Shown piece after piece: positions 2-59,650 of a DNA stretch of 64,000 nucleotides. Source of the DNA: an uncultured archaeon (lineage in GTDB: Archaea > Nanobdellota > Nanobdellia > Pacearchaeales > GW2011-AR1); assembly GCA_902386025.1 (NCBI GenBank), contig CABMHR010000001.1, positions 35,741-99,740 of the forward strand, read 5' to 3'. The translations under genes and the position numbers were made by a program. Positions within the stretch are counted from its first letter, which is position 1. Each line of letters starts with the position of its first letter. The notes below the pieces were generated by a model. It worked only from the letters and a program-made list of their open reading frames with translations. It was not told the origin of the DNA and did no database searches.

Positions 2-298
2 AAAGATTCAAAGGAAGTTTCCTTGCTTGCAAAAGATATTTCAAAAAAGATAAAAAAGAAATTCAAGCCAAAAGAAGTTATTAGTTCTGCTTCAAGATTA
101 TTCGGGCACGAAGCAATAAATCTTCTCCCTGTTTATTCAGAAGAGAATTTTAATTCAGAAAGAAAATCAGCATCAATGGAAGAATTAGAAAAGATTAAAA
201 CAGAATTGGAAAACAATATAAAACTTAAAGCAGAAAAGCCAAAAAGCACAGTAGAAAAAGCAAAAGAAATTCTCTGGCTACCAAAGAGGATTCCATAA
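2..298 (+). CDS. hypothetical Lys/Glu-rich protein, 5'-partial
   Basis: The reading frame stays open to the window edge. No recognisable motif. The 3' end overlaps the tail of the convergent peptidase gene. Confidence 0.3.
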   Translation, partial: KDSKEVSLLAKDISKKIKKKFKPKEVISSASRLFGHEAINLLPVYSEENFNSERKSASMEELEKIKTELENNIKLKAEKPKSTVEKAKEILWLPKRIP

Positions 299-1123
299 AT
301 TCAAATTGAAGATTTTGAAAGAAGCAAAAATAATAAAGCTCACAAGGAAGTTGGGGGAAAAGGGAATTCCCTGCCTTATCTTGACTTGCTTGTATTTTTT
401 TCTTATTGATTTTATTTCTTCATTAGTAAGCCCGTTCCAGTTTGATTTTATAATCTTATTTCCAACTTTTAGGTTTGTGTAAAGCCAGTCTCCTTCTCTA
501 AGATGTATTGCCTGTATTTTTCTTACCATACAGACTTCATCAATCGCTCTTGAATACATATACAAATAAGAAATAAAAATAATTGACAAGCCAATAATTG
601 AAAAGATTATTTCAAAAAATCCAAGAAGAATAAGAACTGCTCCAAGCAGAGTAAGAGAAATCATAAGTTTTTTCTTTTTCTCTAATTGTCTGGCAAATTC
701 TTTTTTGAATGCCTTGAAATGCCTAATGCAAAGAACAGTGCTTGTTGCAAATATATATGCAAATCCAGAAAATAGGAAAATCAGAAGGAAAGTCAGCAGA
801 GACTGGATGTTCAAAATAAAAAATGAAGAAGTTGGAAGTATTGCTCCAAAAGAAATCATAAGCTTCGCATCTCCGCCGGCAAAAACTCTGCTGTAATAAA
901 ATAAATTCCCCAATAGGAAAAATACCCCAAGCCCGATTAACCCCTGATAAAAGAAAGAAAATCCGTCATTGTTAAAAAGAGAATAAAAAAACCTGAATTC
1001 AAGTGCAAATATTACTAAAGAGAAATTAAGCCAGTTTGCGATTTCTCTTGTCTTCAAATCCTGAATTACAGCAAAAATAATCCACGCCAAAGCAAGAGCC
1101 CATAGGAATATCACCTCATACAT
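278..1123 (-). CDS. type IV prepilin/preflagellin peptidase (peptidase A24, GxGD aspartyl protease)
   Basis: Polytopic membrane ORF with both A24 Asp motifs: VIQDLKTREIANW near the N-terminus and AGGDAKLM. It has an extra soluble C-terminal tail and sits next to nine prepilin-like genes. Confidence 0.8.
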   Translation of the reverse strand: MYEVIFLWALALAWIIFAVIQDLKTREIANWLNFSLVIFALEFRFFYSLFNNDGFSFFYQGLIGLGVFFLLGNLFYYSRVFAGGDAKLMISFGAILPTSSFFILNIQSLLTFLLIFLFSGFAYIFATSTVLCIRHFKAFKKEFARQLEKKKKLMISLTLLGAVLILLGFFEIIFSIIGLSIIFISYLYMYSRAIDEVCMVRKIQAIHLREGDWLYTNLKVGNKIIKSNWNGLTNEEIKSIRKKYKQVKIRQGIPFSPNFLVSFIIFASFKIFNLNLWNPLW

Positions 1124-1435: not shown

Positions 1436-1951
1436 TTATTTGCTGACGAAACACTTTCCGTCAGTTCCTGAAACGTCAGTTGTCAATAAATGAACATCAT
1501 ATCCTGCAGTTGCTGTTAATGAACCTGCCTTGCTGTTAATCTTTATGTCAGCGCATTTCAATTCACAAGTAATTGAAGGGCAGGTTGCAATGCTGTATTT
1601 AGCAAAGTCAGAAACTCCTGCAAGAACAGCACAGCTTGTCTTTACAACAAGATTATCTTCATTAACTCTTAATGTTCTTTCAGCAGAGCAAAAGCTGAAT
1701 TTTTGATTTAATCCGCAGGCAGAGTTGCAGTCATCTTTTAGAGAGTCAACATTTGTTGGGCTAAGAAGATTCTTGAAAGCGCTCCATCCAGTAGCAAAGC
1801 CAAATATTAATACGATTAATATAACTAATCCAAGTATAAGCAGAATAATTGTGCTTGTAGGCAGTCCTTGCCCCCTACTATTTTTTGCAGAAAAATTGTA
1901 TTGCGAAAAATTCCTGTTTTCAGCTCTTTTATTTTCTCTTTTGTTAAGCAT
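1436..1951 (-). CDS. prepilin-like secreted protein, Cys-rich
   Basis: Class III-type signal: basic N-terminus, SRG|QGLPTSTIILLILGLVILIV hydrophobic helix. About 10 Cys in the mature part. Last gene of the pilin operon. Confidence 0.6.
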   Translation of the reverse strand: MLNKRENKRAENRNFSQYNFSAKNSRGQGLPTSTIILLILGLVILIVLIFGFATGWSAFKNLLSPTNVDSLKDDCNSACGLNQKFSFCSAERTLRVNEDNLVVKTSCAVLAGVSDFAKYSIATCPSITCELKCADIKINSKAGSLTATAGYDVHLLTTDVSGTDGKCFVSK

Positions 1952-1988: not shown

Positions 1989-2792
1989 TTACGATGCTGT
2001 ATATTGAACAGAAAAAGAAGTTATTTCTTTAGCCCACCACAAAATTCCTTCTACTTCTTTTTTCTCAAGGTAAAATCCTGTTTTTTTCAAGGCAGTATAT
2101 CTATCCCAAGTTTCTTCCACATAATTGTCATTCCCTCCGCAGCTCCATCCGTTATACGCCCTTAATGCTGCTTCCCATTCAGTATATTTTGCATTTTTCC
2201 CAGAACATTGGAAATCTTTTCCTTCTTTGTAGTTATCATAATCTTCTTTTAAAAGCTGAGCTCCAAAATTAATATTAGTTTTAATATCCAATAAATTATT
2301 TTTGCATTGTTCTATTTCAGTTGGAGAGCCACTGCAATGTGCATCAATATTTATCTGCATTAATCCTATTGATTTTCCATTATCCCCTATTTTGTCATTC
2401 CTGCATCCAGATTCCTGCATTATAACTGAAAGCAAAAGAACAGGGTCAATTCCTTTGGAAGAAGCAGAATTAATAATGCCTGCTAAAAGAGAGTCGCAAT
2501 AATCGCCGCAGCTGCAGATTCTGTCTTTTATTGTATGTGTTTTGGCGTATTCAAATATTTTATTAATATCTTCTTTAGGAGTTCCTCCTCCCAAATTGTT
2601 AAAATGATTCTGTTCTATATTTGCATTAAGCTGTTCAATCAATTCAATTCCTGCAAAATGATTCTTTATTGTTATTGTAGAGGAAAAAAAGGTGAATATT
2701 GCAATGCAGCATACCAGAACAACTCCGATTACTAAAAGCGTTATCGGCAAATCTCCTCTTTTGTTATTTATTATTTTGCGCATCATTTTCAT
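1989..2792 (-). CDS. lytic transglycosylase (SLT/family-1) domain protein with prepilin-like N-terminus
   Basis: N-terminus NNKRG|DLPITLLVIGVVLV. C-terminal domain has SLT motifs SVIMQESG (catalytic Glu), GLMQIN and ALRAYNGW. It overlaps the upstream pilin gene by 29 nt. Confidence 0.8.
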   Translation of the reverse strand: MKMMRKIINNKRGDLPITLLVIGVVLVCCIAIFTFFSSTITIKNHFAGIELIEQLNANIEQNHFNNLGGGTPKEDINKIFEYAKTHTIKDRICSCGDYCDSLLAGIINSASSKGIDPVLLLSVIMQESGCRNDKIGDNGKSIGLMQINIDAHCSGSPTEIEQCKNNLLDIKTNINFGAQLLKEDYDNYKEGKDFQCSGKNAKYTEWEAALRAYNGWSCGGNDNYVEETWDRYTALKKTGFYLEKKEVEGILWWAKEITSFSVQYTAS

Positions 2793-3078
2793 TTATTATT
2801 TTGTTTATTTTCACTCTTTCATCATTGCTGTTGCCTGCAAGTTCATTGGCAAGAAAAGTTTTTTCAGCAAGCACCTTTGATTCCTGCGATAAATCTGTCT
2901 GCACCCCCTCCAAGCTTATTACTTTTGTTTTTGACATCAGGACAGTAATAACAATTGAAAGAATAAGAATCCCCACTATGATTAAAGTTGCAATTATCCA
3001 TGCAACAGTTTCTCCTGTTTGTCCATACTTGTCAGAAATTAATTTACATCTTGACATTTTTTTCTGATTTTGCCACAA
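2764..3078 (-). CDS. small prepilin-like protein
   Basis: KYG|QTGETVAWIIATLIIVGILILSIV signal-anchor. The start may be the internal Met at 3057. It overlaps both neighbouring genes. Confidence 0.5.
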   Translation of the reverse strand: MWQNQKKMSRCKLISDKYGQTGETVAWIIATLIIVGILILSIVITVLMSKTKVISLEGVQTDLSQESKVLAEKTFLANELAGNSNDERVKINKIINENDAQNNK

Positions 3079-3580
3079 CTCCTAAAATTTTTATTAGATA
3101 TTGATTCCCAAGAGCATCAAGAGAGTAAAAACTTCTTTCAACGCACTGGGCTAAATTTGAAATTTTTTTTTCTGCTTGAACAGAGCATCCTGGAAGCCAG
3201 TTGTTATTTCCATCCTTCAAAGTTGAAATAGGATTGCTTAAATCGCTGATTTTGTAGAATTTAACTTCCATATAATATTGTTCATTATTTTTCCAAGCTT
3301 CCAAATCTCCAGAATTAAGGGTTAAATGGCATTTTGAGAGATAATTTTCTGAAGGATTAAGAGTTCCTCCTGAAAATAAATCAGAGTTTATCTGTCCGTC
3401 ATAAGAAACGCAGTCTGCGAGATTATTGATTAATAATCTTGCTTCAACTTGTCTTGTATCATAAGGAGTGCTGTAAAAAACATAAACCATTCCGAATATT
3501 CCCCCTGCTACAATTATTATTATTGCAAACCAGTATACAGAAAGAATCTTGTCTCCTCTTTTGTTTTTTGTTATTTTCAT
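3044..3580 (-). CDS. prepilin-like protein
   Basis: MKITKNKRG|DKILSVYWFAIIIIVAGGIFGMV, a class III-like signal followed by a soluble domain with Cys pairs. Confidence 0.55.
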   Translation of the reverse strand: MKITKNKRGDKILSVYWFAIIIIVAGGIFGMVYVFYSTPYDTRQVEARLLINNLADCVSYDGQINSDLFSGGTLNPSENYLSKCHLTLNSGDLEAWKNNEQYYMEVKFYKISDLSNPISTLKDGNNNWLPGCSVQAEKKISNLAQCVERSFYSLDALGNQYLIKILGVVAKSEKNVKM

Positions 3581-3581: not shown

Positions 3582-3998
3582 TTAATTGTATTTGTTTATT
3601 TTGATTATGTAATTATCTTTTGTGTCTTCTGCCTGAACATCAGGATAAGCAGAAGCATCTACATTATTGAAAAAAGAATATGAATAGCTGCTTTTGTCGC
3701 TTAATTTTACCGTCACAACATTCCCATTTATTTTTATTATATTCTCCTTGCTTATTCCGTTTCCTGCAGCAATGGCTATTGCATCTGCCATATTTAGTTT
3801 CATCAGCATTCCCGGCTTTCCTGCATCAATAAGAAGAACTGCATTTTTTGCATATGCCTGTTCCATCATAACTGCTCCGCTTCCCTGCTTGTATAAAAAC
3901 AAAACCAAAATTGCAAGAAAAATTAAATCAAGAACAATAAAAACAATATTATCAATTAAAATTACTCCGTTCTTATCTCTTACAGCCCTCTTTTTCAT
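3582..3998 (-). CDS. prepilin-like protein
   Basis: Basic N-terminus then KNG|VILIDNIVFIVLDLIFLAILVLFL. Its stop is 1 nt from the next gene's start. Confidence 0.5.
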   Translation of the reverse strand: MKKRAVRDKNGVILIDNIVFIVLDLIFLAILVLFLYKQGSGAVMMEQAYAKNAVLLIDAGKPGMLMKLNMADAIAIAAGNGISKENIIKINGNVVTVKLSDKSSYSYSFFNNVDASAYPDVQAEDTKDNYIIKINKYN

Positions 3999-4048: not shown

Positions 4049-5008
4049 TTATGCTAAAGATTTTATCTGTTCGCATTTTAAATCATTAAGAAGAGTTGGT
4101 GTTGCTTCAACTATTGTTGGAGACAAATAATCGTGTCCAGATGCTCCCTTGACTGTTGTTCCAACAAAATATCCTGCTGTTCCTCCAACACCAATTCCCC
4201 CTAAAATTGCAACTGTTGCAGGGATAGATGCTCCCCCAGTTATAGCTGCTAATGCAATCCCTGTTCCTACTGCTACTCCCCCCGCAATCCAAGTCAAAAC
4301 TCCAACTTCATTAAACATCCCAGTCATAACATAATAATCTTTATTCAGATAGATTTTCCCAAAATTTTTGGAATTGCTTGCTAAAGCTTCTGTAATTGCT
4401 CCTGAACTTTTTACTCCAATCATATAATCCAGATAACTTGTGTCTTTTCCTGGAAGTTTTGTTGCTGAAAGATAATTATAAAACTGATTTTCATCTATTT
4501 CTCCATTTTTGAATTCTTCAATATTCTGAACACTTTTGTCAAAAGAAACCTGCGAGCATATTGAACAATAAAGATGAGCTCCAAAATCTTCTCCAAGATA
4601 ATTTAATTTTCCTTCTCCAAACATCCACCAGCAGTCAGCCATCTGTTCTGCCAAAAATTGATAAACATCTGTTGCAGTTTTCACTTTCTGAATCTGGGCA
4701 TTAGGCATAGTTTTGCAAGTCCCGTCTTTTGTCAAGCATGCATACTGCGTCTTGCAGTTTAAGGGAATTGATTCTTTTGGAACCACTCCAGAACCTCGTG
4801 TAACAACAGAATTATGGCAATTCTGCTGTTCTGTTGTTTTTCCAAGATTTAATCTGAACAGAAAAAATAATATAACTGCAAAACTTACAATTAAAATTAT
4901 TATCAGCACTATCTGTTCTGTTGTTATATCCCCTCTGTGATTCTTTGCAGGAAAAATGCACTTCTTTTTTTTATTGGTTATTTTTCTCATAAAATTATAC
5001 CACTCCAA
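4049..5008 (-). CDS. prepilin-like protein with C-terminal glycine-zipper hydrophobic domain
   Basis: NHRG|DITTEQIVLIIILIVSFAVILFF signal; the likely true start is MRKITNKKKK at 4990. C-terminal segment: GVLTWIAGGVAVGTGIALAAITGGASIPATVAILGGIGVGGTAGYFVG. Confidence 0.55.
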   Translation of the reverse strand: MEWYNFMRKITNKKKKCIFPAKNHRGDITTEQIVLIIILIVSFAVILFFLFRLNLGKTTEQQNCHNSVVTRGSGVVPKESIPLNCKTQYACLTKDGTCKTMPNAQIQKVKTATDVYQFLAEQMADCWWMFGEGKLNYLGEDFGAHLYCSICSQVSFDKSVQNIEEFKNGEIDENQFYNYLSATKLPGKDTSYLDYMIGVKSSGAITEALASNSKNFGKIYLNKDYYVMTGMFNEVGVLTWIAGGVAVGTGIALAAITGGASIPATVAILGGIGVGGTAGYFVGTTVKGASGHDYLSPTIVEATPTLLNDLKCEQIKSLA

Positions 5009-5092: not shown

Positions 5093-5599
5093 TCATTTTT
5101 TTTCAGCAGGGCTTATTTCAATTCCCCCGTTTACATTTTTTATTAAAATAGAAATTCCTGTTGTTCCAATCTGGATTGTTTCAAAATGCTTGATTGTGTT
5201 TAAAGAATAGCACGAGCCCTTGTCATCGCACTGGTCTATCTGCGCATTTTTGTTGAAAAAATTGGAAATGTCGCTTGTCTTCATGCAAATGCAGACGCAG
5301 TTTGTTTTTAAGCACGAACTTGGTTTTTTGTCTCCCTCTGTAAAGCTAAAAAGATGCCAGAGCTGAGGGTTTGGAATTGTTATTTCTTTTGAACTTAATT
5401 CTACTTCTCCAGAATTAACTTGATTTATTGCAGGCTTGACTAAATTTTCCATGCTTGCTGCTGCCTGTTTCACTCCTTCTTCTCCTGAAAGGGAAAAATA
5501 TATTGAAACAAGAAGAAGAACAAGAAAGCCTATGCAGATTACAGCAACAACAATTTTTATTGTTTCCTCGCCTAATAAAAATCCTTTTTTATTTTTCAT
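5093..5599 (-). CDS. prepilin-like protein
   Basis: MKNKKG|FLLGEETIKIVVAVICIGFLVLLLV. Cys-rich mature domain. The start overlaps the upstream micro-ORF stop (ATGA). Confidence 0.55.
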   Translation of the reverse strand: MKNKKGFLLGEETIKIVVAVICIGFLVLLLVSIYFSLSGEEGVKQAAASMENLVKPAINQVNSGEVELSSKEITIPNPQLWHLFSFTEGDKKPSSCLKTNCVCICMKTSDISNFFNKNAQIDQCDDKGSCYSLNTIKHFETIQIGTTGISILIKNVNGGIEISPAEKK

Positions 5600-5763
5600 T
5601 TTCCCAAAGCCATGAAGATTTTGTTGGGATTTGCTGGAGAAAGCCCGTTAAAAAATTCTATAATCTGAGTTTTGAAGAAAAAATAAAGTCCTGCTACAAC
5701 TGCAACAACCACAAGAATGCCCAAAATTATTTTTATAAGCTGTTCTGTTGTTAATTCCGACAT
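5596..5763 (-). CDS. 55-aa pilin-like micro-protein (not in ORF track)
   Basis: Hand translation: MSELTTEQLIKIILGILVVVAVVAGLYFFFKTQIIEFFNGLSPANPNKIFMALGK. The TTEQ+hydrophobic helix matches the mature N-terminus of ORF 4049..5008. Its stop overlaps the next start. Confidence 0.4.
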   Translation of the reverse strand: MSELTTEQLIKIILGILVVVAVVAGLYFFFKTQIIEFFNGLSPANPNKIFMALGK

Positions 5764-5764: not shown

Positions 5765-5923
5765 TTATCTCCCTTTGAAAATATTTTTAATTTGGTCTAT
5801 CAAGTCAAATCCTTTTCCCTTCATTACAAAAATGCTTATCATAACTATTGCAAGCAGGGCAAGCCCGATTAACAGCCAAGGAAGATATTCTGTAATCACT
5901 CCTTCTTTTTCTTTTCTCTTCAT
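5765..5923 (-). CDS. 52-aa pilin-like micro-protein (not in ORF track)
   Basis: Hand translation: MKRKEKEG|VITEYLPWLLIGLALLAIVMISIFVMKGKGFDLIDQIKNIFKGR. First gene of the operon, 1 nt from the next start. Confidence 0.4.
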   Translation of the reverse strand: MKRKEKEGVITEYLPWLLIGLALLAIVMISIFVMKGKGFDLIDQIKNIFKGR

Positions 5924-6021: not shown

Positions 6022-6243
6022 ATGGTATTAAAAACATTTAACATTGACAAACAGGCATATGATTTATTTTCAAAATTTTGCAGGGAAAATGGAATAAGCA
6101 TGAGCAAGCAGATAGAGATTTTCATAAAATGTCAGATTGAAGAAGAGCCAAAAATAAGAAAAGAATACTTGGATAGATTAGACAAGATAAGAAAAGGAAA
6201 TTTTGTAAAAGTAGCAGATTTTAAAAAAAGATATTTAAGTTAA
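6022..6243 (+). CDS. RHH/CopG-like antitoxin
   Basis: 73 aa. The N-terminal beta-strand/helix pattern KTFNIDKQAYDLFSKFCRENGISMSKQIEIFI is typical of ribbon-helix-helix antitoxins. It lies 17 nt upstream of a RelE-like gene. Confidence 0.55.
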   Translation: MVLKTFNIDKQAYDLFSKFCRENGISMSKQIEIFIKCQIEEEPKIRKEYLDRLDKIRKGNFVKVADFKKRYLS

Positions 6244-6260: not shown

Positions 6261-6524
6261 ATGTATGGGCTGGAGGTTTCTGATTTAGCAGACAGGAAAT
6301 TCTACAAGATTGCAAGGAAGAATAAAATTCTTTTTGAAGCAATAAGCAAAAAGATTGAAGAGATTAAAACAAATCCTGAACATTTTAAGCCGTTAAGAAG
6401 AGGGATGAAAGGGCAGAGAAGAATTCACTTTGGACATTTTGTATTAACTTTTGAGATTATTTATGAAAGAAATGTAGTAAGAATTCTTGATTTTGATAAT
6501 CATGATAAAATCTATGAAAAATAA
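6261..6524 (+). CDS. RelE/ParE-family type II toxin
   Basis: 87 aa with the pattern KKIEEIKTNPEHFKPLRRGMKGQRRIHFGHFVLTFEI...VVRILDFDNHDKIY, characteristic of RelE/StbE toxins. Confidence 0.7.
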   Translation: MYGLEVSDLADRKFYKIARKNKILFEAISKKIEEIKTNPEHFKPLRRGMKGQRRIHFGHFVLTFEIIYERNVVRILDFDNHDKIYEK

Positions 6525-6533: not shown

Positions 6534-8711
6534 TCACGTTAAATTGCCTAATACAATTGAAGTCAAAAGAGACAATGAAGTAATTGCTATGACTGCAGTT
6601 ATGACATAAAGCCCTATTGCTTTCTTCAGGTTAATTCCTGTCTTGTTTGTCTGCTCAAGCTTGTCTTCTCCAGAATCAATGACAGTCAAAGTTCCTGTTA
6701 GTATAAATACGATTTCAATTAAATATATTCCCACAATTATCTGAAGAATATAAGGAGGAATCATTTTTGTCATATCAAATATGGAAAGGATAGTGTTCAG
6801 ATTTCCAAATCCTGAAATAGCAGTGGAATCTCCGCTTAACTTGGCAATATCAAGTTTTGTTAATATGCTTGTTATCATCGCTGCTAATCCAATAACAATT
6901 CCAGAAAGAAGAGGGGCAAGGAAAGTCATATTGCTCTTCATATCAGAAATTATTTCTGCAAGCAAATCTCTCAATCTTTCTGTAATCTTGTTCATATTTT
7001 TCACATATTCTGACAGGCTTATCAAACTCAAGGCAGCAATGTTCAATCCTTTTTTCGCAGATTCAACAAGAATTTTCATGCTTGTTGCAATCAAGCTTGA
7101 AGGATAATAAACCAATACTCCTCTTTTCTTGTCAAATATTGCACTTTCAACACTCATCCCCATCTGCATAATATTATAGCTTACTCTTCTGAAAAAATCC
7201 TCTGTCTTAAGCCCTTTAGTTGATTCTGCAACTTTGCTGAATGCAAGTTCAGGAGGAACACCGTCTCCAATTCTGTTTCCAAGCTGGAACAAAGAATTGT
7301 TAAACTCAACTTCAAGCTGTTTTGTTTTTTCCCTTTCTTTGATTAATTTTTCTGTTTTTCTCTTGAATGCAATTGAAAAGAACAAAGCTGTTCCTAAAGT
7401 AAAAGAAACGCCCATTAATATTGCTCCTATCCCAAATGGCCCGACTGTCCTGTCTCCTATTGCCCTAAAATCAAAGATGGAATTGTCTCCAAGAAATCCC
7501 AACCCTATTTCAGAAAATGTATAATCTGATTTTAATCCCAAAAATCCAGGTATTGGGGTATATTGAAAAATAAGAGGAAGCAAGCCTATTATAAAAAAAG
7601 GAAGGCAGATTAAGAATGCCTTTGCATAAGGTTTCCTGCTTTTGTAAACAGGATATAGCGGATTTCTTTCTAAAAGTTCTGTTTCTCCATACCCCCCAGG
7701 ACGCAGGAACATAACCTTGTCAGTCAAATAAAAAACAAAAAATGGAATTATAATATTAAATAAAATTAAGACATGATACCATTTGATTATATCTCCAACC
7801 ATTGCAGAAGCAAGAGGAAGAAGAGCCAGCCCCAAAGTTGGAAGAACAACCCCAAGCATATAAACATTTGTCAGCGGACTTCTGACTTCGTGCGTAAATT
7901 TCAGCATCTTTTCATAAACGCCGTCAAGAACAACCTGAAGGGCTTTTTCAAGTGTGGAAATTCTTTTTGCATCTTCCGGCTCAAACAAGCTACTTTCAAT
8001 TAAATGAAAAGCTTCAATAAATTCTATTGAATAATCTTTCCAAGTATTGAGATAGTTATCCAAACTTTCTTTTATTGTTGAAAATTTTCCAACCTGGACA
8101 TTATAAAAAATCTTTTTGAAATCCAGAGCAAGAGGATATTGCAGATGTTCCGAAGCAAATGCAATCGCTTTTTCCAAATTTGGAGTGTGCCTCATATAAA
8201 CAACAATGTACAAAATAGCAGGCATCATTTGGGATGATGCTTTTAATCTCCATTTGTTCGCCAGTCTTGCAGGATATCCGTTGATAAAATAAAAGAGAAA
8301 CATTCCTGCAAACATAACAAGAATAAAAAAGAAAAATGGGAAATTTTCAAATCCTCCCTTGAATAAGGCAATTGCAACAGAAATTAACAGTCCTGCAATA
8401 AAGACTCCCATAAAAGAAACAACTCCAAGAGTAATTGGCTGCCACGGCTCCAAATCAAGATGGGCAATTTCTAAAGACTTTCTTATTTTGTCTTCGTCTT
8501 TTTGTGCAACTTTTAATTTAACAACACTCCCAAGACTTCTGCACAATCTTTCAAATCTTGTAAGTTCAGGAGCCATTTCCTGCTTGAATGTAGTGTATGT
8601 CTGGCTGTAATTTGTTTTTTCAGAAACAGAATCAGATTTTATCGTATCTTCAATCTTTGCTGCGTGTTTTTTAAGAATTTCTTCTATGGTTGGCTTTCGA
8701 GTTGGTTCCAT
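6534..8711 (-). CDS. FlaJ/TadC/PilC-like type IV filament platform membrane protein
   Basis: 725-aa polytopic membrane protein with cytoplasmic helical domains. It lies between the pilin genes and the secretion ATPase. The call rests on architecture and context. Confidence 0.6.
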   Translation of the reverse strand: MEPTRKPTIEEILKKHAAKIEDTIKSDSVSEKTNYSQTYTTFKQEMAPELTRFERLCRSLGSVVKLKVAQKDEDKIRKSLEIAHLDLEPWQPITLGVVSFMGVFIAGLLISVAIALFKGGFENFPFFFFILVMFAGMFLFYFINGYPARLANKWRLKASSQMMPAILYIVVYMRHTPNLEKAIAFASEHLQYPLALDFKKIFYNVQVGKFSTIKESLDNYLNTWKDYSIEFIEAFHLIESSLFEPEDAKRISTLEKALQVVLDGVYEKMLKFTHEVRSPLTNVYMLGVVLPTLGLALLPLASAMVGDIIKWYHVLILFNIIIPFFVFYLTDKVMFLRPGGYGETELLERNPLYPVYKSRKPYAKAFLICLPFFIIGLLPLIFQYTPIPGFLGLKSDYTFSEIGLGFLGDNSIFDFRAIGDRTVGPFGIGAILMGVSFTLGTALFFSIAFKRKTEKLIKEREKTKQLEVEFNNSLFQLGNRIGDGVPPELAFSKVAESTKGLKTEDFFRRVSYNIMQMGMSVESAIFDKKRGVLVYYPSSLIATSMKILVESAKKGLNIAALSLISLSEYVKNMNKITERLRDLLAEIISDMKSNMTFLAPLLSGIVIGLAAMITSILTKLDIAKLSGDSTAISGFGNLNTILSIFDMTKMIPPYILQIIVGIYLIEIVFILTGTLTVIDSGEDKLEQTNKTGINLKKAIGLYVITAVIAITSLSLLTSIVLGNLT

Positions 8712-8783
8712 CTTCTCTTTTTTAAGTAAAAAATAAAAGAGAATTTAACTTATAAATATTTGCGATTTTCGTCGGACAAAAAA

Positions 8784-9278
8784 TTATTTCTTTTTCCCCT
8801 TGAGATAAAGGAAAGTGAAAACTAATCCGCAGATAAAGAAGCAGATGCCAATCCAGCGCGAATCATTCTGGCTTAATTCTGTTATGACATTTCCAGTTAA
8901 GCTTGAGGATACAAAAACAAGAGCAGCCAAAAAAGAGGATATTGAAAGCACAGCAGAAAGCCTTTTTCCCAATCCTGTTGGGGAAACATAATTCTCGAAT
9001 CTTTTTCTTGTTGCATTCAATCCCTTGAGATATTTTTTAATATCTTTCATATCTTCATCATTTTCATCCTTGCCCATTCTTTTAGCATAACTCAAGGCAG
9101 AATAATAATCTCTTTCTGCATTCTTAACTGCTTCGCTCCCAGGAACCTTATTCCACATATCTCCTGCGTTCTTATATCCTGAAAAGACACGAGAAAAAGA
9201 AGGAAGTTTTTTCATTAATTCTCTTTGAGCTTCTAATTCATAATCAATTGCCTTCTTCTCTGCAGGATGTTTTATCAT
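8784..9278 (-). CDS. hypothetical membrane-anchored protein, filament-locus accessory
   Basis: Soluble helical N-terminal part plus two C-terminal TM helices. It is wedged between the platform and ATPase genes. No family recognised. Confidence 0.35.
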   Translation of the reverse strand: MIKHPAEKKAIDYELEAQRELMKKLPSFSRVFSGYKNAGDMWNKVPGSEAVKNAERDYYSALSYAKRMGKDENDEDMKDIKKYLKGLNATRKRFENYVSPTGLGKRLSAVLSISSFLAALVFVSSSLTGNVITELSQNDSRWIGICFFICGLVFTFLYLKGKKK

Positions 9279-9313
9279 ATCTAATAAGAATAAATCAGCT
9301 TTAAATATTTTAT

Positions 9314-11602
9314 TTAAAAGAACTTTTTCTTTATTTCCCCATTAAGCCATTTCTGCCAAGCAGGGAAAACTCTTTCTCCGATAGGAAGTCCTACTTCCTG
9401 CCTGATATTATCAGAAATTTCATGGAATGCGTGATTTGAAAGAGTGTTGAATTCTGCTTCAAGAATTTTGTTGTTTCCTGTCTTGTTTGCTGTATTTACT
9501 ATTTCTTGTTTTATGTTTGCTCTTAAAAGAATATTATCATAAATCCCGTCCCAGTTTCCAGCCCATCCCTTTACATTTGATGCAATGTCTTTGAGAACTT
9601 CGCTGTCTCCGTTGATTAAATCATCGCTCGGCTTTAATTCATCTTTTTCTATGTCATAATTAAGCAAATCAACAAATCCTTTTTCTAAGAGAGGGTCATC
9701 TTTCCAGTGTTTTCTTATTTCAGAAAGCTGAACAACTCTTCTCAACGAATGCAGTCCGTCTGGTGTTTTAATTGGATTGCAGACAGCAATTATGTCTGTT
9801 GCCTTAAAGCTTGTTTTCGGAACTTCCAAGTCATTTACAACTCTGTCAAAAACTCCGTATGGACTTGCTCCGTGAATTGTTCCTGCAACAACATTGGCCA
9901 AAGCACCGACTCTCATTGCTTCATAAAGTGCTTTTGCTTCAACGCTTCTCACTTCACCTATTATCAAGCAGGAATCCCCTAATCTTAAGCTGGTTCTTAT
10001 TCCATCGTCAGCAGAAACTTCTGTTGTCGTTCTTAATAAAGCAGAACGGACTTTCATTCTTAACAAGTCATAATCTAATTTCCTTAAAGATTCAACAGGC
10101 AGTTCCAGAGAATCTTCAATTACAATAATTCTGTGCTTGGGAATAATTTCCAGCATCAAGCTTCCAAGCAGGGAAGTTTTTCCAGAGCCTCTTGTTCCTG
10201 CAACTAAAAGCGTTCTTGCTCCGTCAATTAAAAAACTCATCAGTCCTGCAGTAAAAGAATTAAGCATTTTATTCTGCACAAATAACGGCAGAGTCCAAGG
10301 CTCTTCTCTATGCCTTCTTATTGCATATGCCAGCCCGTCGGGAGAAAGAGGATTCTGAATCACTGCAATTCTCGCTCTGATTTTTCCAATTTCCAATTGA
10401 GTGTCTAATATTGGATTTGCTTCATCCAAAGGACGCCCTGAAATCATTCTGAATTTAGCAGCCCACGAATCAATATCTGCTTGGCTTGGAAGAATATTTG
10501 TCAGGCACTCGTCATATTCCTGATGATTCACAAAAATATTTGTCATAGGTATTGGAGAATTCAGAAATATATCCTGCAGATTTTTATCCTGAAGCAAAAC
10601 TTCCACAATTCCAAAACCAATAGTCTGCCTGACTAAAATCGTAGCGAGTTTGTTTAAATCAGGATAATTTATATTTATCCTCTGGGATTGCGCCAAATCC
10701 TGAAGCAAATCTTTTGAAATATTAAAAAAAACCTGCCTGACTCTTTCAACATCTGTAAATTCCTCTGCTTTTGGCTGATGTTCTACTAAAACTCCGCGGG
10801 CAAGATTCAGAAGAACATTATAATCTTCATCAAGGGAATTTTCAGGAGGATTGAGATGATAAATTAATTTGGATTCATTTTTCTGCTTTAGTATTGTCAC
10901 AGTGGAAGTATCATAGTCTTCCCCAATTTCATACTGGTTTATAATTTCAGCCCCTTCAGGCAAATCAGAAATCAGCCTCGTAAAAGTAAAATTGGGAATT
11001 ACATCTGGACTGAATATTTTGTGGTATATTTCTCTGTCTCCCTTTTTATAATTGTCAAGATAAGGCAGAACTTCTCTGATTAGCCTTGTATTTTCCAGCA
11101 GAGCCAGAATTTTCTCCAGGAGATGAGTATAATTATCCTGTTCATTTCTGGAAGAAAGAGAAATTTTTTCAGATAAAATTTTTGACTGAAGAATTATTTT
11201 TTTGAGTTCAAAATATGCAGAAACAGGGTCCTGCCTTAAAAGAAGAAGAAATGAAAAGACTTCATTATATCTTTGGGAAAAGAACTGCCCGTTTGAAGAA
11301 GCAAGCTTGTCCTGCGAAAGAATTTTCTCCTGTTTCATAAAATAAACATAAAGCTGTGCAATTTCCAAAAGCGTAGCAGTTTCCTTGAAGTCATAATTAT
11401 AGTTTTTCTGCTGGCTTAAGATTATTCTTGAAACATTCGGATTTTCTATAAGTGCATCAACAGTTTTTCCCATAACCTCGGCATATTCTGCAATATTCGG
11501 AACAAAAGGAGCGCCAAGATAATTAATGTAAAGAATGTCTTCCCCCCCTTCTCTGCGGACTTCATATGCGTATAATTTATTCTCCTCTTTTTCGTCTGGC
11601 AT
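9314..11602 (-). CDS. type II/IV secretion-family ATPase (FlaI/PilB/VirB11-like) with long N-terminal extension
   Basis: Walker A VAGTRGSGKTSLLGSL, Walker B/Asp box RIIVIEDSLEL, IIGEVRSVEA and His box AGTIHG. Several hundred residues precede the ATPase core. Confidence 0.9.
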   Translation of the reverse strand: MPDEKEENKLYAYEVRREGGEDILYINYLGAPFVPNIAEYAEVMGKTVDALIENPNVSRIILSQQKNYNYDFKETATLLEIAQLYVYFMKQEKILSQDKLASSNGQFFSQRYNEVFSFLLLLRQDPVSAYFELKKIILQSKILSEKISLSSRNEQDNYTHLLEKILALLENTRLIREVLPYLDNYKKGDREIYHKIFSPDVIPNFTFTRLISDLPEGAEIINQYEIGEDYDTSTVTILKQKNESKLIYHLNPPENSLDEDYNVLLNLARGVLVEHQPKAEEFTDVERVRQVFFNISKDLLQDLAQSQRININYPDLNKLATILVRQTIGFGIVEVLLQDKNLQDIFLNSPIPMTNIFVNHQEYDECLTNILPSQADIDSWAAKFRMISGRPLDEANPILDTQLEIGKIRARIAVIQNPLSPDGLAYAIRRHREEPWTLPLFVQNKMLNSFTAGLMSFLIDGARTLLVAGTRGSGKTSLLGSLMLEIIPKHRIIVIEDSLELPVESLRKLDYDLLRMKVRSALLRTTTEVSADDGIRTSLRLGDSCLIIGEVRSVEAKALYEAMRVGALANVVAGTIHGASPYGVFDRVVNDLEVPKTSFKATDIIAVCNPIKTPDGLHSLRRVVQLSEIRKHWKDDPLLEKGFVDLLNYDIEKDELKPSDDLINGDSEVLKDIASNVKGWAGNWDGIYDNILLRANIKQEIVNTANKTGNNKILEAEFNTLSNHAFHEISDNIRQEVGLPIGERVFPAWQKWLNGEIKKKFF

Positions 11603-18282: not shown

Positions 18283-19683
18283 TTACACGCAGATTTTTCT
18301 TTTGGGAGACAGAAGAGAAGGGGCAGGTTTAGCTCTAAGACTGCAGCAGTCTATTGCATTCAATACATATTTGGAAGAGCAGGTAGCTCTTGCATAAATT
18401 GAAGCGCTGGTAGTTGTATTTGTTTTGTCTGAAGATACAACAGTTATGTAAATGTCATTTACTTTGGCGCTAGTTCCTTCTGAAATATTTTTTGAATAAA
18501 CATTTCCCAAGTTGTTTGTTATTTGCAGTTTTGCTCCGTAGTCAGAAACAGAGATTAGCTTAAAGGTATATGTTCTGCCGCTGAAAATTACCCCTTTGGT
18601 AAAATTAGCAGTTAATTTTGCAGAAGATTTGGATTCATTAACATAAATATTGACTGTATTTTTTTTCTTGTCAGGAGAAGTCAGTTTGACAGTTAATCCA
18701 TAATCAAGAGTATAAAACTGATTTATTCCTAAAGAAATAATCATGCTAGATTTGTTAAGATTAGCAACCATTATCTCGGAAGAATCATTTGAGCCTGAAA
18801 GCAGCTTAATCAAAAATGGAAAAGTGCCAATCTTGATTTGGGTTTGTGAGTTAAGGGGTGATTTTTTTGTATAAGAAAGAGTTGTAAGAGTTATGTCTGA
18901 AGTAATTTTTTTTGGAGTTGAACTTGGTTGGGGATTGCAGATTCCAGATTGACATACTAATCCGGAACAGCATTCATTTCCAAATGGACAAGATTGAATT
19001 GAATATCTGCAGGACTGAACTGCGTTTGAAGCAGAAGTGCTTAGGTATCTTTTTCCAGGAGTTGTATCAATAAGGTATTTCTTTCCGGCAGTAGTCTCAA
19101 CAAAATTTGTTGTTAAAAAATTAACTGCGTTTGTAAGTGCATTAGAATCATATCCTATGACTAGCAAATAGGTGTTTCCAATAGAACCTTGAACGCTTTG
19201 AATTATAAATTGCCCTTTAGAAAGCCCCAATTTGTCAGTTAAGACATTGCAATCGGGTTCATTTGCTATTTTTAAAAGAACATTGTTGCTACAGGGCGTT
19301 CCAATAACAATCAAATTACCTGCAAAGGGAATCCATTTAGCAGAATCGGGCAGAACAGAATCCCAAGCCATTGCCCATTTCCCAAGAAATGTTCTAAGAT
19401 TATCTTTTATTAGATTTGCCTGCGTTAAGCCATTTGTTGAATTTTTTCCATAGATAATAGTAACATCTCTTGAACCAGTTATTTTAGATTCTGAAGTAAT
19501 GAATGGATCCGGATAAGCCCGTATTATTTTTTGCTCCGAATTAATATTTGAAGTTACAACATTTCCTGTAAAAAATAATTTAATAACCACCATTAAGATT
19601 GCTAAAATTACCAGCCCAAAAAATAGCCACTTAATAAGATTTATTTTTTTCTTTTCCTTCTTCCCCTTTTTTCTGTTCATCAA
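18283..19683 (-). CDS. membrane-anchored surface protein with Cys-knot-like insert
   Basis: N-terminal TM anchor. An S-layer-like segment IVIGTPCSNNVLL, the motif CPFGNECCSGLVCQSGICNP, then Ser/Thr/Asn-rich beta-rich repeats. Confidence 0.4.
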   Translation of the reverse strand: MMNRKKGKKEKKKINLIKWLFFGLVILAILMVVIKLFFTGNVVTSNINSEQKIIRAYPDPFITSESKITGSRDVTIIYGKNSTNGLTQANLIKDNLRTFLGKWAMAWDSVLPDSAKWIPFAGNLIVIGTPCSNNVLLKIANEPDCNVLTDKLGLSKGQFIIQSVQGSIGNTYLLVIGYDSNALTNAVNFLTTNFVETTAGKKYLIDTTPGKRYLSTSASNAVQSCRYSIQSCPFGNECCSGLVCQSGICNPQPSSTPKKITSDITLTTLSYTKKSPLNSQTQIKIGTFPFLIKLLSGSNDSSEIMVANLNKSSMIISLGINQFYTLDYGLTVKLTSPDKKKNTVNIYVNESKSSAKLTANFTKGVIFSGRTYTFKLISVSDYGAKLQITNNLGNVYSKNISEGTSAKVNDIYITVVSSDKTNTTTSASIYARATCSSKYVLNAIDCCSLRAKPAPSLLSPKRKICV

Positions 19684-37559: not shown

Positions 37560-37808
37560 ATGTCAAAAAATATTGAAGAAAATATAATGGAAAAACCAGA
37601 AGATTTTAATGACAGACATGGGAATCCTTTAGAAAAAGATTCTCTTTATGTTCTTCCCCATCTTCTTTCTCCATTGCAATTTGAAGGTTATGACTATCTT
37701 CAAGAAGGAGATTTCAAAAACTTGAGAGCAGTTTTCACAAATTCAAAAGGTTGCAATTTATACTTTAACAAAAACCAAGTTGCTGCCTTTGTAATAAAAG
37801 TAAACTAA
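37560..37808 (+). CDS. hypothetical protein
   Basis: 82-aa ORF in the island. No motif recognised. Confidence 0.3.
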   Translation: MSKNIEENIMEKPEDFNDRHGNPLEKDSLYVLPHLLSPLQFEGYDYLQEGDFKNLRAVFTNSKGCNLYFNKNQVAAFVIKVN

Positions 37809-37870
37809 CCTTATCTAAGTGCACATTTCAAGATATAAATTCTTAAAAACATCACCAAATCAATTCTTTT

Positions 37871-38215
37871 ATGAAAAATGAATTCATAGAAAAGCCGTGG
37901 GTTGTTTATGGCTGGTTTCATGGCTTATGGGATATTGGTAGAGTAATAAATGAATCATTAGACATACAGCACGATGAAGAGAGAGAATATGTTTTAAAAC
38001 ATTCTTCCAACCGCATCATCAAAACATTTCAAACTTCTGAAGAAGCAATAAACTATTGTTTTGAAACTCAACTTCACAAATCAGGATGTTTTGATTCAAC
38101 AGATGCAATATTTCAAAGAGTTTTATCCTATTTTCCTAAAGCAACTAAACTGGAAGCAATCCAATTTTTCTATAATACATTAATAGCTCATCAGAAAAAA
38201 AGAGGCAGTTCATAA
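37871..38215 (+). CDS. hypothetical protein (paralog of 38243..38668)
   Basis: Shares the N-terminal block KPWVVYGWFHGLWDIGRVINES with NPWGVYGWFLGSGDIGKIVEDS. Confidence 0.4.
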   Translation: MKNEFIEKPWVVYGWFHGLWDIGRVINESLDIQHDEEREYVLKHSSNRIIKTFQTSEEAINYCFETQLHKSGCFDSTDAIFQRVLSYFPKATKLEAIQFFYNTLIAHQKKRGSS

Positions 38216-38242
38216 AGGCAATCTTAGTGCACAAATATAAAA

Positions 38243-38668
38243 ATGACAGAAGAAAAAACACAAATAGAAAATCCATGGGGAGTTTATGGCTGGTTTCTTG
38301 GTTCAGGGGATATTGGAAAAATTGTTGAAGATTCTAAATGTAGTTGTTATATTCAATATTGTGAAGGACAAAGATATCCTGCAGAATGTTGGGATTCAGA
38401 ATGGGTTCATAAATTTGATAATCCCTTAAAAGCAATTGAATATTTTCTTTTGCATAATCATGATGGGTTTAGTAAGGAACAAGTAATAGAGCACTTCTTG
38501 AGAGACTTCCCCAGTGAGAAAAAGACACTTAAACGACTCTTAGAACAAAGCCCGCCTAAGTGCACACAAGCAGATATAGATTCTGGAAAAGTTGAAGAAA
38601 GCCATGATGGAAGTCTTCACGAAACACACACTAAAGACAGATTTCCTCATCCAAATAAAAAATATTAA
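38243..38668 (+). CDS. hypothetical protein (paralog of 37871..38215)
   Basis: Same N-terminal W-rich block and a shared AIEYF/AINYCF segment. Confidence 0.4.
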   Translation: MTEEKTQIENPWGVYGWFLGSGDIGKIVEDSKCSCYIQYCEGQRYPAECWDSEWVHKFDNPLKAIEYFLLHNHDGFSKEQVIEHFLRDFPSEKKTLKRLLEQSPPKCTQADIDSGKVEESHDGSLHETHTKDRFPHPNKKY

Positions 38669-38683
38669 TCTTCCTTCATAAAA

Positions 38684-38709
38684 CTTCGTACAACCTATAT
38701 TGTGCGAAC
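38684..38709. promoter_or_regulatory. candidate tyrosine-recombinase core site (inverted arms, 6-bp spacer)
   Basis: CTTCGTACAA-CCTATA-TTGTGCGAAC. The arms are 8/10 inverted repeats. A third arm copy GTTCGTACAA lies at 38740-38749. The site starts 74 nt upstream of the Xer-like gene start (38758). Confidence 0.35.
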
Positions 38710-38757
38710 TACCAAATTACAACACTTTTTTATAAATAAGTTCGTACAATCTTTTTT

Positions 38758-39588
38758 ATGAAAAAAGAAGAATTTCTTGAAAAATTAAACGTAGAATTGA
38801 CTATCTCCAAGAACTCTAAATACACCTTAAGGAATTACTTAAATGCAAATTTAGAGCTGCTTGAATTTTTTAAAAAAGAGCCATCTGAAATTACAGAAGA
38901 TGATGTTAAGATGTTCATGGCCAAAAAATTAACAGATTCCTCCTCTTCCTCCATCATAGTATTTTTGTCTGCACTAAGATTTGCCTACTCCAATATTTTG
39001 AAAAAAGATGTAACTTTGGGAATAAAACGTCCAAAGAGAGAAAAGCGAATTCCAGCAGTTTTAACAAAAGAAGAAGTAAAACGTTTGTTTGCTAATCTTC
39101 CAAATAAAAAGAGCAAACTTATGATAAGCTTAATCTATGCCTGTGGGTTTAGGGTTTCAGAGCTTCTTAATCTTAAACTGAATGATTTAAACTTTGAAGA
39201 AATGATTTGTCATGTAAGGCAGGCAAAAGGCAAAAAGGATAGAATTGTTAACATTCCCCATTTTTTATTAAAAGACTTGAAGAAACAGGCAGTAAAACAA
39301 CAGGAATCAAGACAAGATTATCTCTTTACTGGGCTAAAGGGGAGATTAACAGAGAGAAATATTCAAAAGATAGTTCAAAAGACAGCAAAAAAAGCAGGAA
39401 TTGACAAAGAAGTTCATCCTCACACTTTAAGACACAGCTTTGCAACACATTTACTTGAAAATGGAACAGACATAAGGAAAATTCAGGAACTCTTAGGACA
39501 TGCAGATTTATCAACAACTCAAATTTATACTCATATCTCAACAGAGGAATTAAAAAAGATAAAATCTCCTTTAGATGATTTAATGTAA
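38758..39588 (+). CDS. XerA/XerC/D-like tyrosine recombinase
   Basis: N-terminal SAM-like domain. Catalytic blocks GFRVSELLNL, HPHTLRHSFATHLLENG and LLGHADLSTTQIYTH (R..HxxR..H..Y). Confidence 0.85.
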   Translation: MKKEEFLEKLNVELTISKNSKYTLRNYLNANLELLEFFKKEPSEITEDDVKMFMAKKLTDSSSSSIIVFLSALRFAYSNILKKDVTLGIKRPKREKRIPAVLTKEEVKRLFANLPNKKSKLMISLIYACGFRVSELLNLKLNDLNFEEMICHVRQAKGKKDRIVNIPHFLLKDLKKQAVKQQESRQDYLFTGLKGRLTERNIQKIVQKTAKKAGIDKEVHPHTLRHSFATHLLENGTDIRKIQELLGHADLSTTQIYTHISTEELKKIKSPLDDLM

Positions 39589-50673: not shown

Positions 50674-50701
50674 AAGGAAATATTAATTCTAAAAAAATAA
50701 A

Positions 50702-50815
<114 letters not shown>

Positions 50816-56202: not shown

Positions 56203-56204
56203 TT

Positions 56205-57065: not shown

Positions 57066-57125
57066 AAAAAACCAATATAATTTTTACTTTTAAGGTTTTA
57101 TGTATCTCAATTATATTGTTATAAT

Positions 57126-58043: not shown

Positions 58044-58123
58044 ATTTTAATCCATTTATCCTCATTTAAAAAGTTACTGAAACATTCCTTCATTAATTTT
58101 AAAAGTCAGCCAAATTTAATAGT

Positions 58124-59641: not shown

Positions 59642-59650
59642 TTTTATCTT

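Follow-up and report, generated by a model that had tools for sequence, protein, structure and literature searches.

A lytic transglycosylase domain inserted in a pilin-like protein of an archaeal filament operon

A gene of an uncultured archaeon, at 1989..2792 on the minus strand of the DNA analysed here, raises the question of why a filament operon should encode a protein with a lytic transglycosylase (SLT) domain when murein is described as absent from archaea (PMC12352652). The whole stretch analysed, 64,000 nucleotides, is referred to below as the window, and all positions are window coordinates unless a related locus is named. The product of the gene is entered at NCBI as 'Transglycosylase SLT domain protein [uncultured archaeon]', 265 residues counted from Met3, on a contig of 241 kb. 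A preliminary description, made from the letters of the window, had proposed that a transglycosylase fused to a prepilin-type N-terminus is processed by the adjacent A24 peptidase and displayed on or delivered by the filament to breach the murein of a bacterial partner or prey.

The analysis showed that the protein has an SLT/GH23 domain with an intact active site and, judging from alignments with orthologues that lack it, that this domain is inserted within a small pilin-like carrier. In the reading favoured here, which we give about an even chance, the protein is a modular minor pilin of a Tad/Epd-like filament and displays a lytic transglycosylase aimed at foreign bacterial murein. The host of the gene is a Woese-/Pacearchaeota-type DPANN archaeon.

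An SLT domain within a pilin-like carrier

The translation contains the blocks SVIMQESG, GLMQIN and ALRAYNGW and, near its start, NNKRG↓DLPITLLVIGVVLV, where the arrow marks the predicted processing site. The Pfam profile PF01464 (SLT) matched residues 107-215 with an E-value of 1.7e-13 and a score of 50.6 bits (cut-off 21.3). Glu127, within Q-E-S, is encoded at 2412-2414 (ttc on the plus strand, corresponding to GAA). A profile of the homologues compared with the PDB matched MltC of E. coli (3.6e-5), MltE and EtgA, a transglycosylase of type III secretion, and placed Glu127 on the column of the catalytic glutamate of MltC, where the inactive-mutant chain 4cfo has Gln. The three motif blocks and the assignment of Glu127 as the catalytic Glu, first read from the sequence, were thus borne out by profile. 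Among ten homologues that are 39-53% identical, E127-S128, G143-L-M-Q-I147 and A209/R211/Y213-N-G215 were invariant, as were seven cysteines, C93, C95, C99, C130, C153, C196 and C218, while C163 was nearly invariant.

The AlphaFold2 (AF2) model of the protein, built with 10 sequences, had a predicted local distance difference test (pLDDT) score of 74-94 across residues 71-239. The top Foldseek matches in the PDB were all GH23 proteins, MltC (8.6e-4), MltF, MltE, Slt70, g-type lysozymes and a Ralstonia GH23 chitinase, so the goose-lysozyme-like fold that had been anticipated was recovered. The E-values are modest because the full-length model carries disordered parts. The motifs, the profile match and the fold match over residues 71-239 therefore identify an intact GH23/SLT enzyme domain.

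The identity of the best structural match bears on the substrate. The target-normalised TM-score was highest for the catalytic domain of the Ralstonia GH23 chitinase (TMt 0.58-0.62), substrate classes within GH23 are inseparable by sequence, and the known hosts of DPANN archaea are themselves archaea (PMC8204110). The enzyme might accordingly act on a glycan other than murein, such as chitin or chito-oligosaccharides, methanogen pseudomurein or another beta-1,4-GlcNAc polymer, with an archaeal or eukaryotic surface or detritus as its target. This alternative is quite unlikely, as the nearest solved proteins by profile are the murein lytic transglycosylases MltC, MltE and EtgA. The E-S, GLMQ and AYNxG motif set, moreover, is that of the family 1 lytic transglycosylases, and pseudomurein, in which the bonds to N-acetyltalosaminuronic acid are beta-1,3, resists lysozymes.

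The part of the protein that precedes the domain resembles the start of a prepilin. Leader and helix read MKMMRKIINNKRG↓DLPITLLVIGVVLVCCIAIFTFF, a short basic leader with a small residue at position -1 and a basic one at -2, followed by a hydrophobic helix; the junction of the two is NNKRG↓DLPITLLVIG..., and the only hydrophobic segment of the protein is at residues 15-33. All homologues (n=10) have N[KR][KR]G↓D[IL]P[IV]T[IL]LV.G, with G13 and T18 invariant and Asp14 nearly so. At the other end, the AF2 model has strands at residues 251-255 and 258-262 that form a C-terminal hairpin, with low pLDDT.

Two orthologues of 98-99 residues that lack SLT aligned to residues 1-66 and 238-267 with approximately 50% identity and a single clean gap at about 67-237. 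Because both ends of the protein were matched with one gap between them, the SLT module, of approximately 170 residues, is an insertion between the helix and the hairpin of a pilin-like carrier of approximately 98 residues. The preliminary description was correct in joining the SLT domain to a prepilin-like N-terminus, but the arrangement is an insertion rather than an N-terminal fusion.

The operon lies on the minus strand in the order ATPase, 164-residue membrane protein, 725-residue membrane protein, nine small proteins and A24 peptidase (Table 1). The nine small proteins, of which the SLT protein is the eighth, each have one N-terminal hydrophobic helix, and in most of the eight neighbours of the SLT protein this helix directly follows a [KR]G-type motif; the class III-like N-terminus, which had been ascribed to all eight neighbours, is common to most of the small operon proteins. 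A strict regular expression for the motif matched three of the seven open reading frames of at least 80 residues in the pilin block and two of 84 elsewhere in the window; with a looser search span, five real open reading frames of the pilin block were matched. In 10 loci, the [ND]K[KR]G motif with a hydrophobic helix behind it was present on 7-9 of the small proteins of each operon. The start of the SLT gene overlaps the end of the upstream p104 gene by 29 nucleotides, the figure given previously, or by 23 if Met3 is the start, and an overlap of p104 with the gene in the SLT slot is also kept in two relatives (L001 and L065).

Several components of a type IV filament system were recognised, the ATPase and the peptidase by profile and the pilin-like proteins by motif, while the platform position is occupied by a protein that has no family match. 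The A24 peptidase, whose presence next to the gene had been pointed out, has both aspartate motifs, D22 (IQDLK) and GGD85, and stands at the operon end in L001, L065 and L068-L072. In NCBIfam the ATPase matched FlaI (2e-37), TadA (3.3e-36) and BasE (4.2e-20), all below the family cut-offs, and it is 64-87% identical in related loci. The 725-residue protein adjoins the ATPase in the relatives (8 loci, 38-81% identity) and may be a highly divergent or novel platform protein. An AF2 model of p178 from 64 sequences consisted of alpha-1 and a four-stranded sheet (pLDDT 76). The N-terminal stretch of p52, 'MKRKEKEG VITEYLPWLLIGLALL..', has a Flp/Tad-like motif kept in at least five related loci; the motif KEG-VITEY-LPW, which in p52 continues with LLIG, is kept across loci and would place Glu at +4, not +5, if the cut follows Gly. 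The likeness of p52 to Flp pilins is at the level of the motif only, because a Pfam search of p52 gave no Flp match.

Table 1. Coordinates of the SLT gene, its parts and the other genes of the operon
Feature	Coordinates	Strand	Basis
SLT-bearing pilin-like protein 'X' (SLT/GH23 module inserted)	1989..2792	minus	ATG start, 267-residue open reading frame; Pfam SLT; orthologues
Residues 1-13 of X, basic leader ending NNKRG, putative class III (prepilin) signal, predicted cut after Gly13	2754..2792	minus	conservation in homologues
Residues 14-66 of X, N-terminal carrier part: hydrophobic alpha-1 (15-37) and second helix (47-66)	2595..2753	minus	AF2, alignment
Residues ~67-237 of X, inserted effector: Cys-rich lead-in (C93, C95, C99) and SLT catalytic domain	2082..2594	minus	gap in SLT-less orthologues, AF2, Foldseek
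Residues 238-267 of X, C-terminal beta-hairpin of carrier (GFYLEK..GILWWAKEITSFSVQYT) and stop codon	1989..2081	minus	orthologues, AF2
A24 prepilin-type peptidase, 281 residues, candidate processing enzyme	278..1123	minus	PF01478 7.7e-11
Pilin-like p171 (..NSRG↓QGLPTSTIILLILG..)	1436..1951	minus	motif, helix; SLT-bearing versions elsewhere, e.g. P0090, P0096
Pilin-like p104	2764..3078	minus	helix; homologues with KKA↓Q.(G/A)ET.
Pilin-like p178 (KNKRG↓DKILSVYWFAIII..)	3044..3580	minus	motif; 294 homologue clusters; SLT carrier in other genomes
Pilin-like p138 (..KNG↓VILIDNIVFIVL..)	3582..3998	minus	helix; C-terminal SLT module in other genomes
Pilin-like p319, Cys-rich (..HRG↓DITTEQIVLIIIL..)	4049..5008	minus	motif, helix
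Pilin-like p168 (MKNKKG↓FLLGEETIK..)	5093..5599	minus	motif; carries SLT in other genomes
Very small pilin-like p55	5596..5763	minus	hydrophobic helix
Very small pilin-like p52 (MKRKEKEG VITEYLPWLLIG..), candidate major subunit	5765..5923	minus	Flp-like G-xxx-EY motif
Polytopic membrane protein, 725 residues, in TadC/FlaJ-type platform position	6534..8711	minus	~9 hydrophobic segments
164-residue protein, two C-terminal transmembrane segments, between ATPase and 725-residue protein, conserved	8784..9278	minus	sequence, relatives
FlaI/TadA/VirB11-superfamily secretion/assembly ATPase, 762 residues	9314..11602	minus	Pfam T2SSE 4.4e-15

Between the 725-residue gene and the pilin block there is a ParE-family toxin gene on the plus strand (6261-6524; PF05016, 3.4e-10) with a likely antitoxin gene (6022-6243, plus). 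At the corresponding site no opposite-strand genes were called in L001, L065, L068, L070 and L072, and an unrelated minus-strand gene was present in L069 and in one further sampled operon. Relatives also have large surface-type proteins encoded upstream of the platform-like gene or the ATPase (L070 1-3752; L068 1-1107; another sampled locus 43-2730), among them a Peptidase_S8 protein of 1,115 residues and Peptidase_S74, Laminin_G_3 and beta-propeller/beta-helix proteins. Their presence is a hint of further effectors linked to the filament system.

Relatives of the SLT protein and carriers of the module

Close homologues of the SLT protein formed ten clusters in 5.8 billion proteins, and a second, alignment-based protein search added three proteins only. 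A scan of one genome per species, whose patterns were derived from this SLT family and are hence biased towards it, gave 61 loci, all in archaeal metagenome-assembled genomes (MAGs) and nearly all labelled Woesearchaeota, Pacearchaeota, Nanoarchaeota or Iainarchaeum. The sole label outside DPANN was that of L058, a MAG labelled Methanosarcinales, in which a 730-residue membrane protein (8426-10618) has a C-terminal SLT-like domain with 27% identity; this could be a binning error or a separate acquisition.

In contigs where the SLT protein is 40-51% identical, the order ATPase, 725-residue protein, pilin block, SLT gene and A24 peptidase was kept, and contigs with homologues of 46-51% identity were flanked by the archaeal core genes EF-1-beta, OB-fold protein, RadA and NDK. 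The window itself is archaeal, with PolD DP2 (3.6e-111), DP1, Orc1/Cdc6, RNA polymerase subunits of archaeal/eukaryal type and ribosomal proteins, and its GC content (0.28-0.35) is uniform with no break at the operon. A chimeric or bacterial contig is ruled out by the uniform GC content and by the archaeal core genes on both sides in the relatives, and the archaeal assignment of the replicon stands. When the same loci were compared, the ATPase was 80-87% identical and the SLT protein 40-51%. The SLT protein therefore diverges faster than the ATPase, as expected of an exposed, fast-evolving protein.

Six operons were sampled regardless of SLT, by way of p178 homologues on long contigs. Three of them have an SLT protein of 273-291 residues in the slot after the p104 homologue, and the other three have a protein of 97-99 residues in that slot and no SLT among the genes shown for the locus. 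Co-occurrence of the SLT gene with the pilin operon in related genomes, which had been put forward as a check, was thus observed, with the gene order kept and SLT in half of the sampled operons.

The module was also found on other proteins of the same operon type. To type the carriers, 227 SLT homologues were compared with the operon proteins of the window, and the short SLT proteins were divided by their N-terminal carrier into the window type (approximately 36), p178 (11), p138 (10), p168 (8) and p171 (4-6), all counts being approximate. There are thus at least four pilin-like carriers besides the window type, at least five families in total. In L015, L033 and L012 the module lies within a p178-type protein, between residues ~65 and 84, and both halves of p178 are kept; most of the p178 family lacks SLT. 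Moreover, L015 and L033 also have the window-type carrier, in these loci a protein of 133-135 residues without SLT. In L011 (6127-7056) the module is appended to a p138-type protein to give 309 residues, and P0034, P0049, P0052, P0060, P0062 and L023 are p168-type proteins with SLT. The modules of L011 and L012, on other carriers, and of L013, a giant protein, are 45-46% identical to that of the window, much as the true orthologues are. Because the module recurs in several carriers, the carrier halves are kept and the insert is optional, selection appears to favour an enzyme on a filament subunit and not merely near the operon.

The remaining homologues are giant DPANN proteins of 2,000-3,200 residues with Sec-type signal peptides and a C-terminal SLT domain, and no filament genes were detected within 10 kb of them in the loci examined. 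Among 184 SLT cores, nearest-neighbour comparison grouped 25 of the 27 window-type cores together, whereas the cores of other carriers interleaved with those of the giant proteins; the alignment is gappy (579 columns), and the grouping is not read as a tree.

Proteins of another size class, 1,276-1,523 residues, with SLT in mid-protein and prepilin-like N-termini (e.g. NKKKGQ↓VYIVAVVITIIF), are encoded in L055 (8228-12058), L059 (7547-12118), L060 (8177-12019) and L062 (7916-11857). They may represent modular pilin-like proteins of very large size that stand midway between the small SLT-pilins and the Sec-type giants. P0116 of the representative library (263 residues) joins residues 1-131 of the A24 peptidase (3e-52) straight to an SLT core and looks like a deletion, a misassembly or a gene-call chimera across the operon end.

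The preliminary description had also allowed for a horizontally acquired relic. SLT is typically a bacterial domain, and the close homologues amount to about ten clusters in a very large database, so a decaying or non-functional bacterial gene might sit in the operon by chance. We regard this explanation as most improbable. The active-site motifs and seven cysteines are invariant in orthologues as divergent as those described above, the operon position and the overlap are conserved, and a profile search of the full library yielded 1,407 representative clusters at E<=1e-3 (126 at E<=1e-30), the leading ones with DPANN-style architectures. In addition, neither the genome scan, biased as it is towards this family, nor a tblastn search of phage records found a close bacterial or phage relative. 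With the conserved residues and a DPANN-specific family of this size, the relic had to be abandoned.

Two more definite origins were considered and rejected. A phage origin received no match when the SLT protein was compared by tblastn with 50,697 phage records. For a recent bacterial donor, the genome scan, with its family-derived patterns, gave archaeal MAGs only, nearly all of them DPANN, and the nearest solved bacterial enzymes had E-values of 1e-5 to 1e-3. No donor of the module could be named from the genome scan, the PDB profile or the representative library, which is free of taxonomy.

Target and proposed function

In the reading favoured here, the precursor of the SLT-pilin would insert into the membrane, where the A24 peptidase of the operon would cut it after Gly13, and the FlaI/TadA-like ATPase with its membrane partner would build alpha-1 into the filament. 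The protein would probably be a low-abundance or tip subunit, together with other minor pilins, or alternatively would be held on a short pseudopilus; the suggested tip location follows the analogy of bacterial modular pilins (PMC8179133). The disulfide-stabilised SLT domain would thereby be exposed outside the cell, and Glu127 would cleave MurNAc-beta-1,4-GlcNAc (N-acetylmuramic acid to N-acetylglucosamine) bonds in the peptidoglycan of bacteria touched by the filament. The bacterial wall would then be thinned locally, which might serve attachment, open a way to the bacterial membrane or set muropeptides free. We infer the A24 cleavage, the polymerisation, the catalytic activity and its chemistry, and the bacterial murein target. 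Bacterial peptidoglycan is taken as the substrate because no murein-synthesis gene was found among the scanned open reading frames of the window, in agreement with what had been noted earlier, and because murein is reported to be absent from archaea (PMC12352652).

The closest precedents are the modular pilins of bacteria, which come in 264 described architectures; one of the modules is a peptidase, and in GspK the additional domain is an insertion (Raynaud et al. 2021, PMC8179133). PilB and PilC of Streptococcus sanguinis, whose grafted modules are a vWA domain and a lectin, respectively, resemble the SLT protein in having a class III carrier and an effector that is probably presented at the tip (PMC8179133), while the minor pilin GspK of the type II secretion system has, as here, an extra domain inserted inside the pilin module (PMC8179133). 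The features that characterise modular pilins were found here too, as the carriers exist without the module and the module also occurs on other carriers and in giant proteins. Unlike the examples in PMC8179133, the pilin-like protein described here belongs to an archaeon and has a GH23 lytic transglycosylase as its effector; the module lies in the helix-hairpin loop instead of being appended and shifts between at least five carriers within a single type of operon, and Foldseek matched the modelled carrier p178 to no pilin in the PDB. In its main text and the supplements consulted, PMC8179133, which covers bacterial IPR012902 pilins only and whose full dataset may go further, lists neither a transglycosylase nor a lysozyme.

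A second group of relevant systems comprises the specialised lytic transglycosylases, VirB1 of type IV secretion, EtgA and IagB of type III secretion, PleA and FlgJ. Like the SLT protein they are small family 1 SLT proteins encoded in the operon of a machine, and EtgA and IagB are among its nearest profile matches. Enzymes of the VirB1 type are soluble, reside in the periplasm and open the wall of the cell that makes them. The specialised enzymes are Sec-exported, soluble or rod-associated in the periplasm and needed for efficient assembly, whereas the protein described here has a pilin-type N-terminus and is optional, being present in three of six operons. The features that define the VirB1, EtgA and IagB type, action on the producer's own sacculus and a requirement in assembly, were therefore not found, since half of the sampled operons lack SLT and no murein-synthesis family was found in the window. 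The earlier comparison with VirB1 holds for a small SLT protein in a machine operon; the pilin-type N-terminus sets it apart, and the wall attacked is most likely foreign, because the 64 kb of the producer analysed here yielded no gene for murein synthesis.

These facts also bear on the possibility that the protein is an assembly helper, which like VirB1, EtgA, IagB and PleA would open a murein-like layer of the producer itself for passage of the filament. The encoding of a small SLT protein inside the operon of the machine and the weak profile matches with EtgA and IagB would fit such a role. It is nevertheless very unlikely, 1) the murein-synthesis families were not found in the window, 2) half of the equivalent operons have no SLT at all, so SLT is not needed for assembly, 3) the enzyme is built into a pilin-like protein and is not a soluble periplasmic one, 4) the giant extracellular paralogues have the same module, and 5) murein is described as absent from archaea (PMC12352652).

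The Sulfolobus bindosome (BasEF) suggests a further explanation. It resembles the present system in that functional, non-structural proteins have class III signals, are processed by a PibD-type peptidase and depend on a FlaI-like ATPase (PMC4858521), and the ATPase of the window has a weak match to BasE. It differs in that its cargo consists of solute-binding proteins for uptake and not of a glycan-cleaving enzyme, and the carriers are not homologous. By analogy, the class III N-terminus might serve only to export or anchor the SLT domain, perhaps on a short pseudopilus, as a surface-tethered scavenger that digests peptidoglycan debris or dead bacteria for amino sugars and peptides without piercing a live partner.

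Such a scavenger is unlikely, although there are points in its favour. Apart from the BasE match (4.2e-20), PibD-type peptidases also process non-pilins, substrate-binding proteins among them (PMC4858521), Pacearchaeota are reported to have enzymes for muropeptide processing that point to scavenging (PMC11537232), the insert is dispensable, with three of six operons lacking SLT, and the pilin fold of the carrier received no PDB confirmation by Foldseek. However, the carriers keep both their N- and C-terminal parts around the module, which a simple anchor would not need, the module recurs specifically on filament-operon proteins of at least five carrier families, and DPANN archaea already own Sec-dependent giant SLT proteins for plain secretion.

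The display of a murein-directed enzyme on a filament, as favoured here, has itself to be weighed against several observations that count against it, 1) Foldseek comparison of the p178 model with the PDB matched no pilin and gave chance-level matches only (best E 0.098), 2) searches of Pfam and NCBIfam and with a nine-sequence PDB profile gave the 725-residue protein no T2SSF, TadC, FlaJ or any PDB match, 3) the pLDDT of the SLT protein is below 50 for carrier residues 35-70 and 240-267, 4) its N-terminal helix could be a membrane anchor only, 5) the SLT insert is dispensable for the filament, because half of the sampled operons lack it, 6) g-type lysozymes and a chitinase are among the GH23 structural matches, and sequence separates neither the substrate nor lytic from hydrolytic chemistry, 7) the failure to find the Mur-ligase, MraY, MurG and penicillin-binding protein families covers only scanned open reading frames of at least 100 residues in the 64-kb window and says little of the genome, and 8) a bacterial host of any Woese- or Pacearchaeote has not been demonstrated in the DPANN literature surveyed.

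Part of this picture is known already, namely that DPANN archaea have SLT domains with a proposed anti-bacterial role and that bacteria have modular pilins. SLT/GH23 domains have been reported in Woese- and Pacearchaeota since 2013-2015, in very large extracellular proteins, and interpreted as directed against bacterial walls (PMC8204110, PMC9723730, PMC10936187, PMC11537232). These giant proteins (fam00969, Castelle et al. 2021, PMC8204110; 'large lytic murein transglycosylase', Vigneron et al. 2022, PMC9723730) have the same module including the Cys-rich lead-in, occur in the same taxa and have the same proposed bacterial-murein target. In L013, for example, the module of a 1,713-residue protein is 45% identical to residues 75-235. 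The giant proteins are 2,000-3,200 residues long with Sec-type signals, whereas the protein of the window has 267 residues and a prepilin-like N-terminus and is encoded inside a filament operon. It falls outside the fam00969 class, as only the SLT module, with ~30-45% identity, is common to both.

Attack on bacterial walls by archaea has been demonstrated experimentally in haloarchaea, whose secreted peptidoglycan hydrolases are lethal to bacteria (Strock et al. 2025, PMC12352652). The hydrolases are likewise archaeal enzymes aimed at bacterial murein and provide proof of principle, but they are secreted into the culture supernatant, have neither a pilin-type N-terminus nor a link to a filament operon, and are described without mention of pili (PMC12352652). 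No description of a pilin-embedded transglycosylase was found in the DPANN literature or by targeted full-text searches, and none is mentioned in two surveys of archaeal type IV filaments (PMC4858521, bioRxiv 10.64898/2026.04.22.720090). The combination of SLT and pilin in an archaeal pilus operon appears to be undescribed.

Few Woese- and Pacearchaeota have a known host or lifestyle, and the idea that some of them live on bacteria has so far rested mainly on SLT domains in giant proteins. The SLT module is now tied physically to a contact organelle, since it lies inside pilin-like subunits of a conserved filament operon. A vague idea of murein degradation thereby becomes testable, with a predicted Gly13/Asp14 processing site, Glu127, natural variants with and without the insert and defined partner minor pilins. 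The principle of the modular pilin would be extended from bacteria to archaea and to a wall-degrading effector, and the SLT cassette would be a genomic marker that could help to predict which DPANN lineages interact with bacteria.

A bolder version, which is tentative and rather doubtful, holds that the Tad-like pilus of Woese- and Pacearchaeota is a wall-breaching device, in which the cassette can slot into any of several minor pilins and, on contact, drills locally through the murein of a bacterial host or prey from the tip. If true, this would be the first molecular apparatus for episymbiosis or predation of an archaeon on a bacterium, and lineages whose partners are bacteria, not archaea, would be recognisable by whether they have the cassette.

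The remainder of the window

A surface-glycan cluster at 55258-63352 encodes two NDP-sugar (nucleoside diphosphate sugar) epimerase/dehydratases, a UDP-glucose dehydrogenase, a GT2 glycosyltransferase, a Polysacc_synt flippase, a radical SAM/SPASM protein and a cytidylyltransferase, and has no murein-specific genes. On the minus strand at 18283-19683 there is a gene for a Cys-rich protein of 466 residues with no Pfam family, whose N-terminus reads 'MNRKKG↓KKEKKKINLIKWLFFGLVILAILMV'; from its sequence it may be a further surface protein, either of class III type or anchored in the membrane, encoded outside the operon.

A likely integrated element occupies approximately 34800-40310, with a tyrosine integrase (38758-39588, 1e-47), an HNH endonuclease (39589-39891), a recombinase fragment (39888-40310), a helix-turn-helix protein (35674-36366) and several open reading frames without a family. 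It lies in and just past the lowest-GC stretch of the window (0.284, 32-36 kb) and adjoins Orc1/Cdc6. Finally, an 88-nucleotide tRNA on the plus strand at 51446-51533 was found by Rfam (52.3 bits) and was not reported by ARAGORN; it stands beside tRNA-Leu, tRNA-Gly and 5S rRNA (50701-50815) and may be an intron-containing archaeal tRNA.

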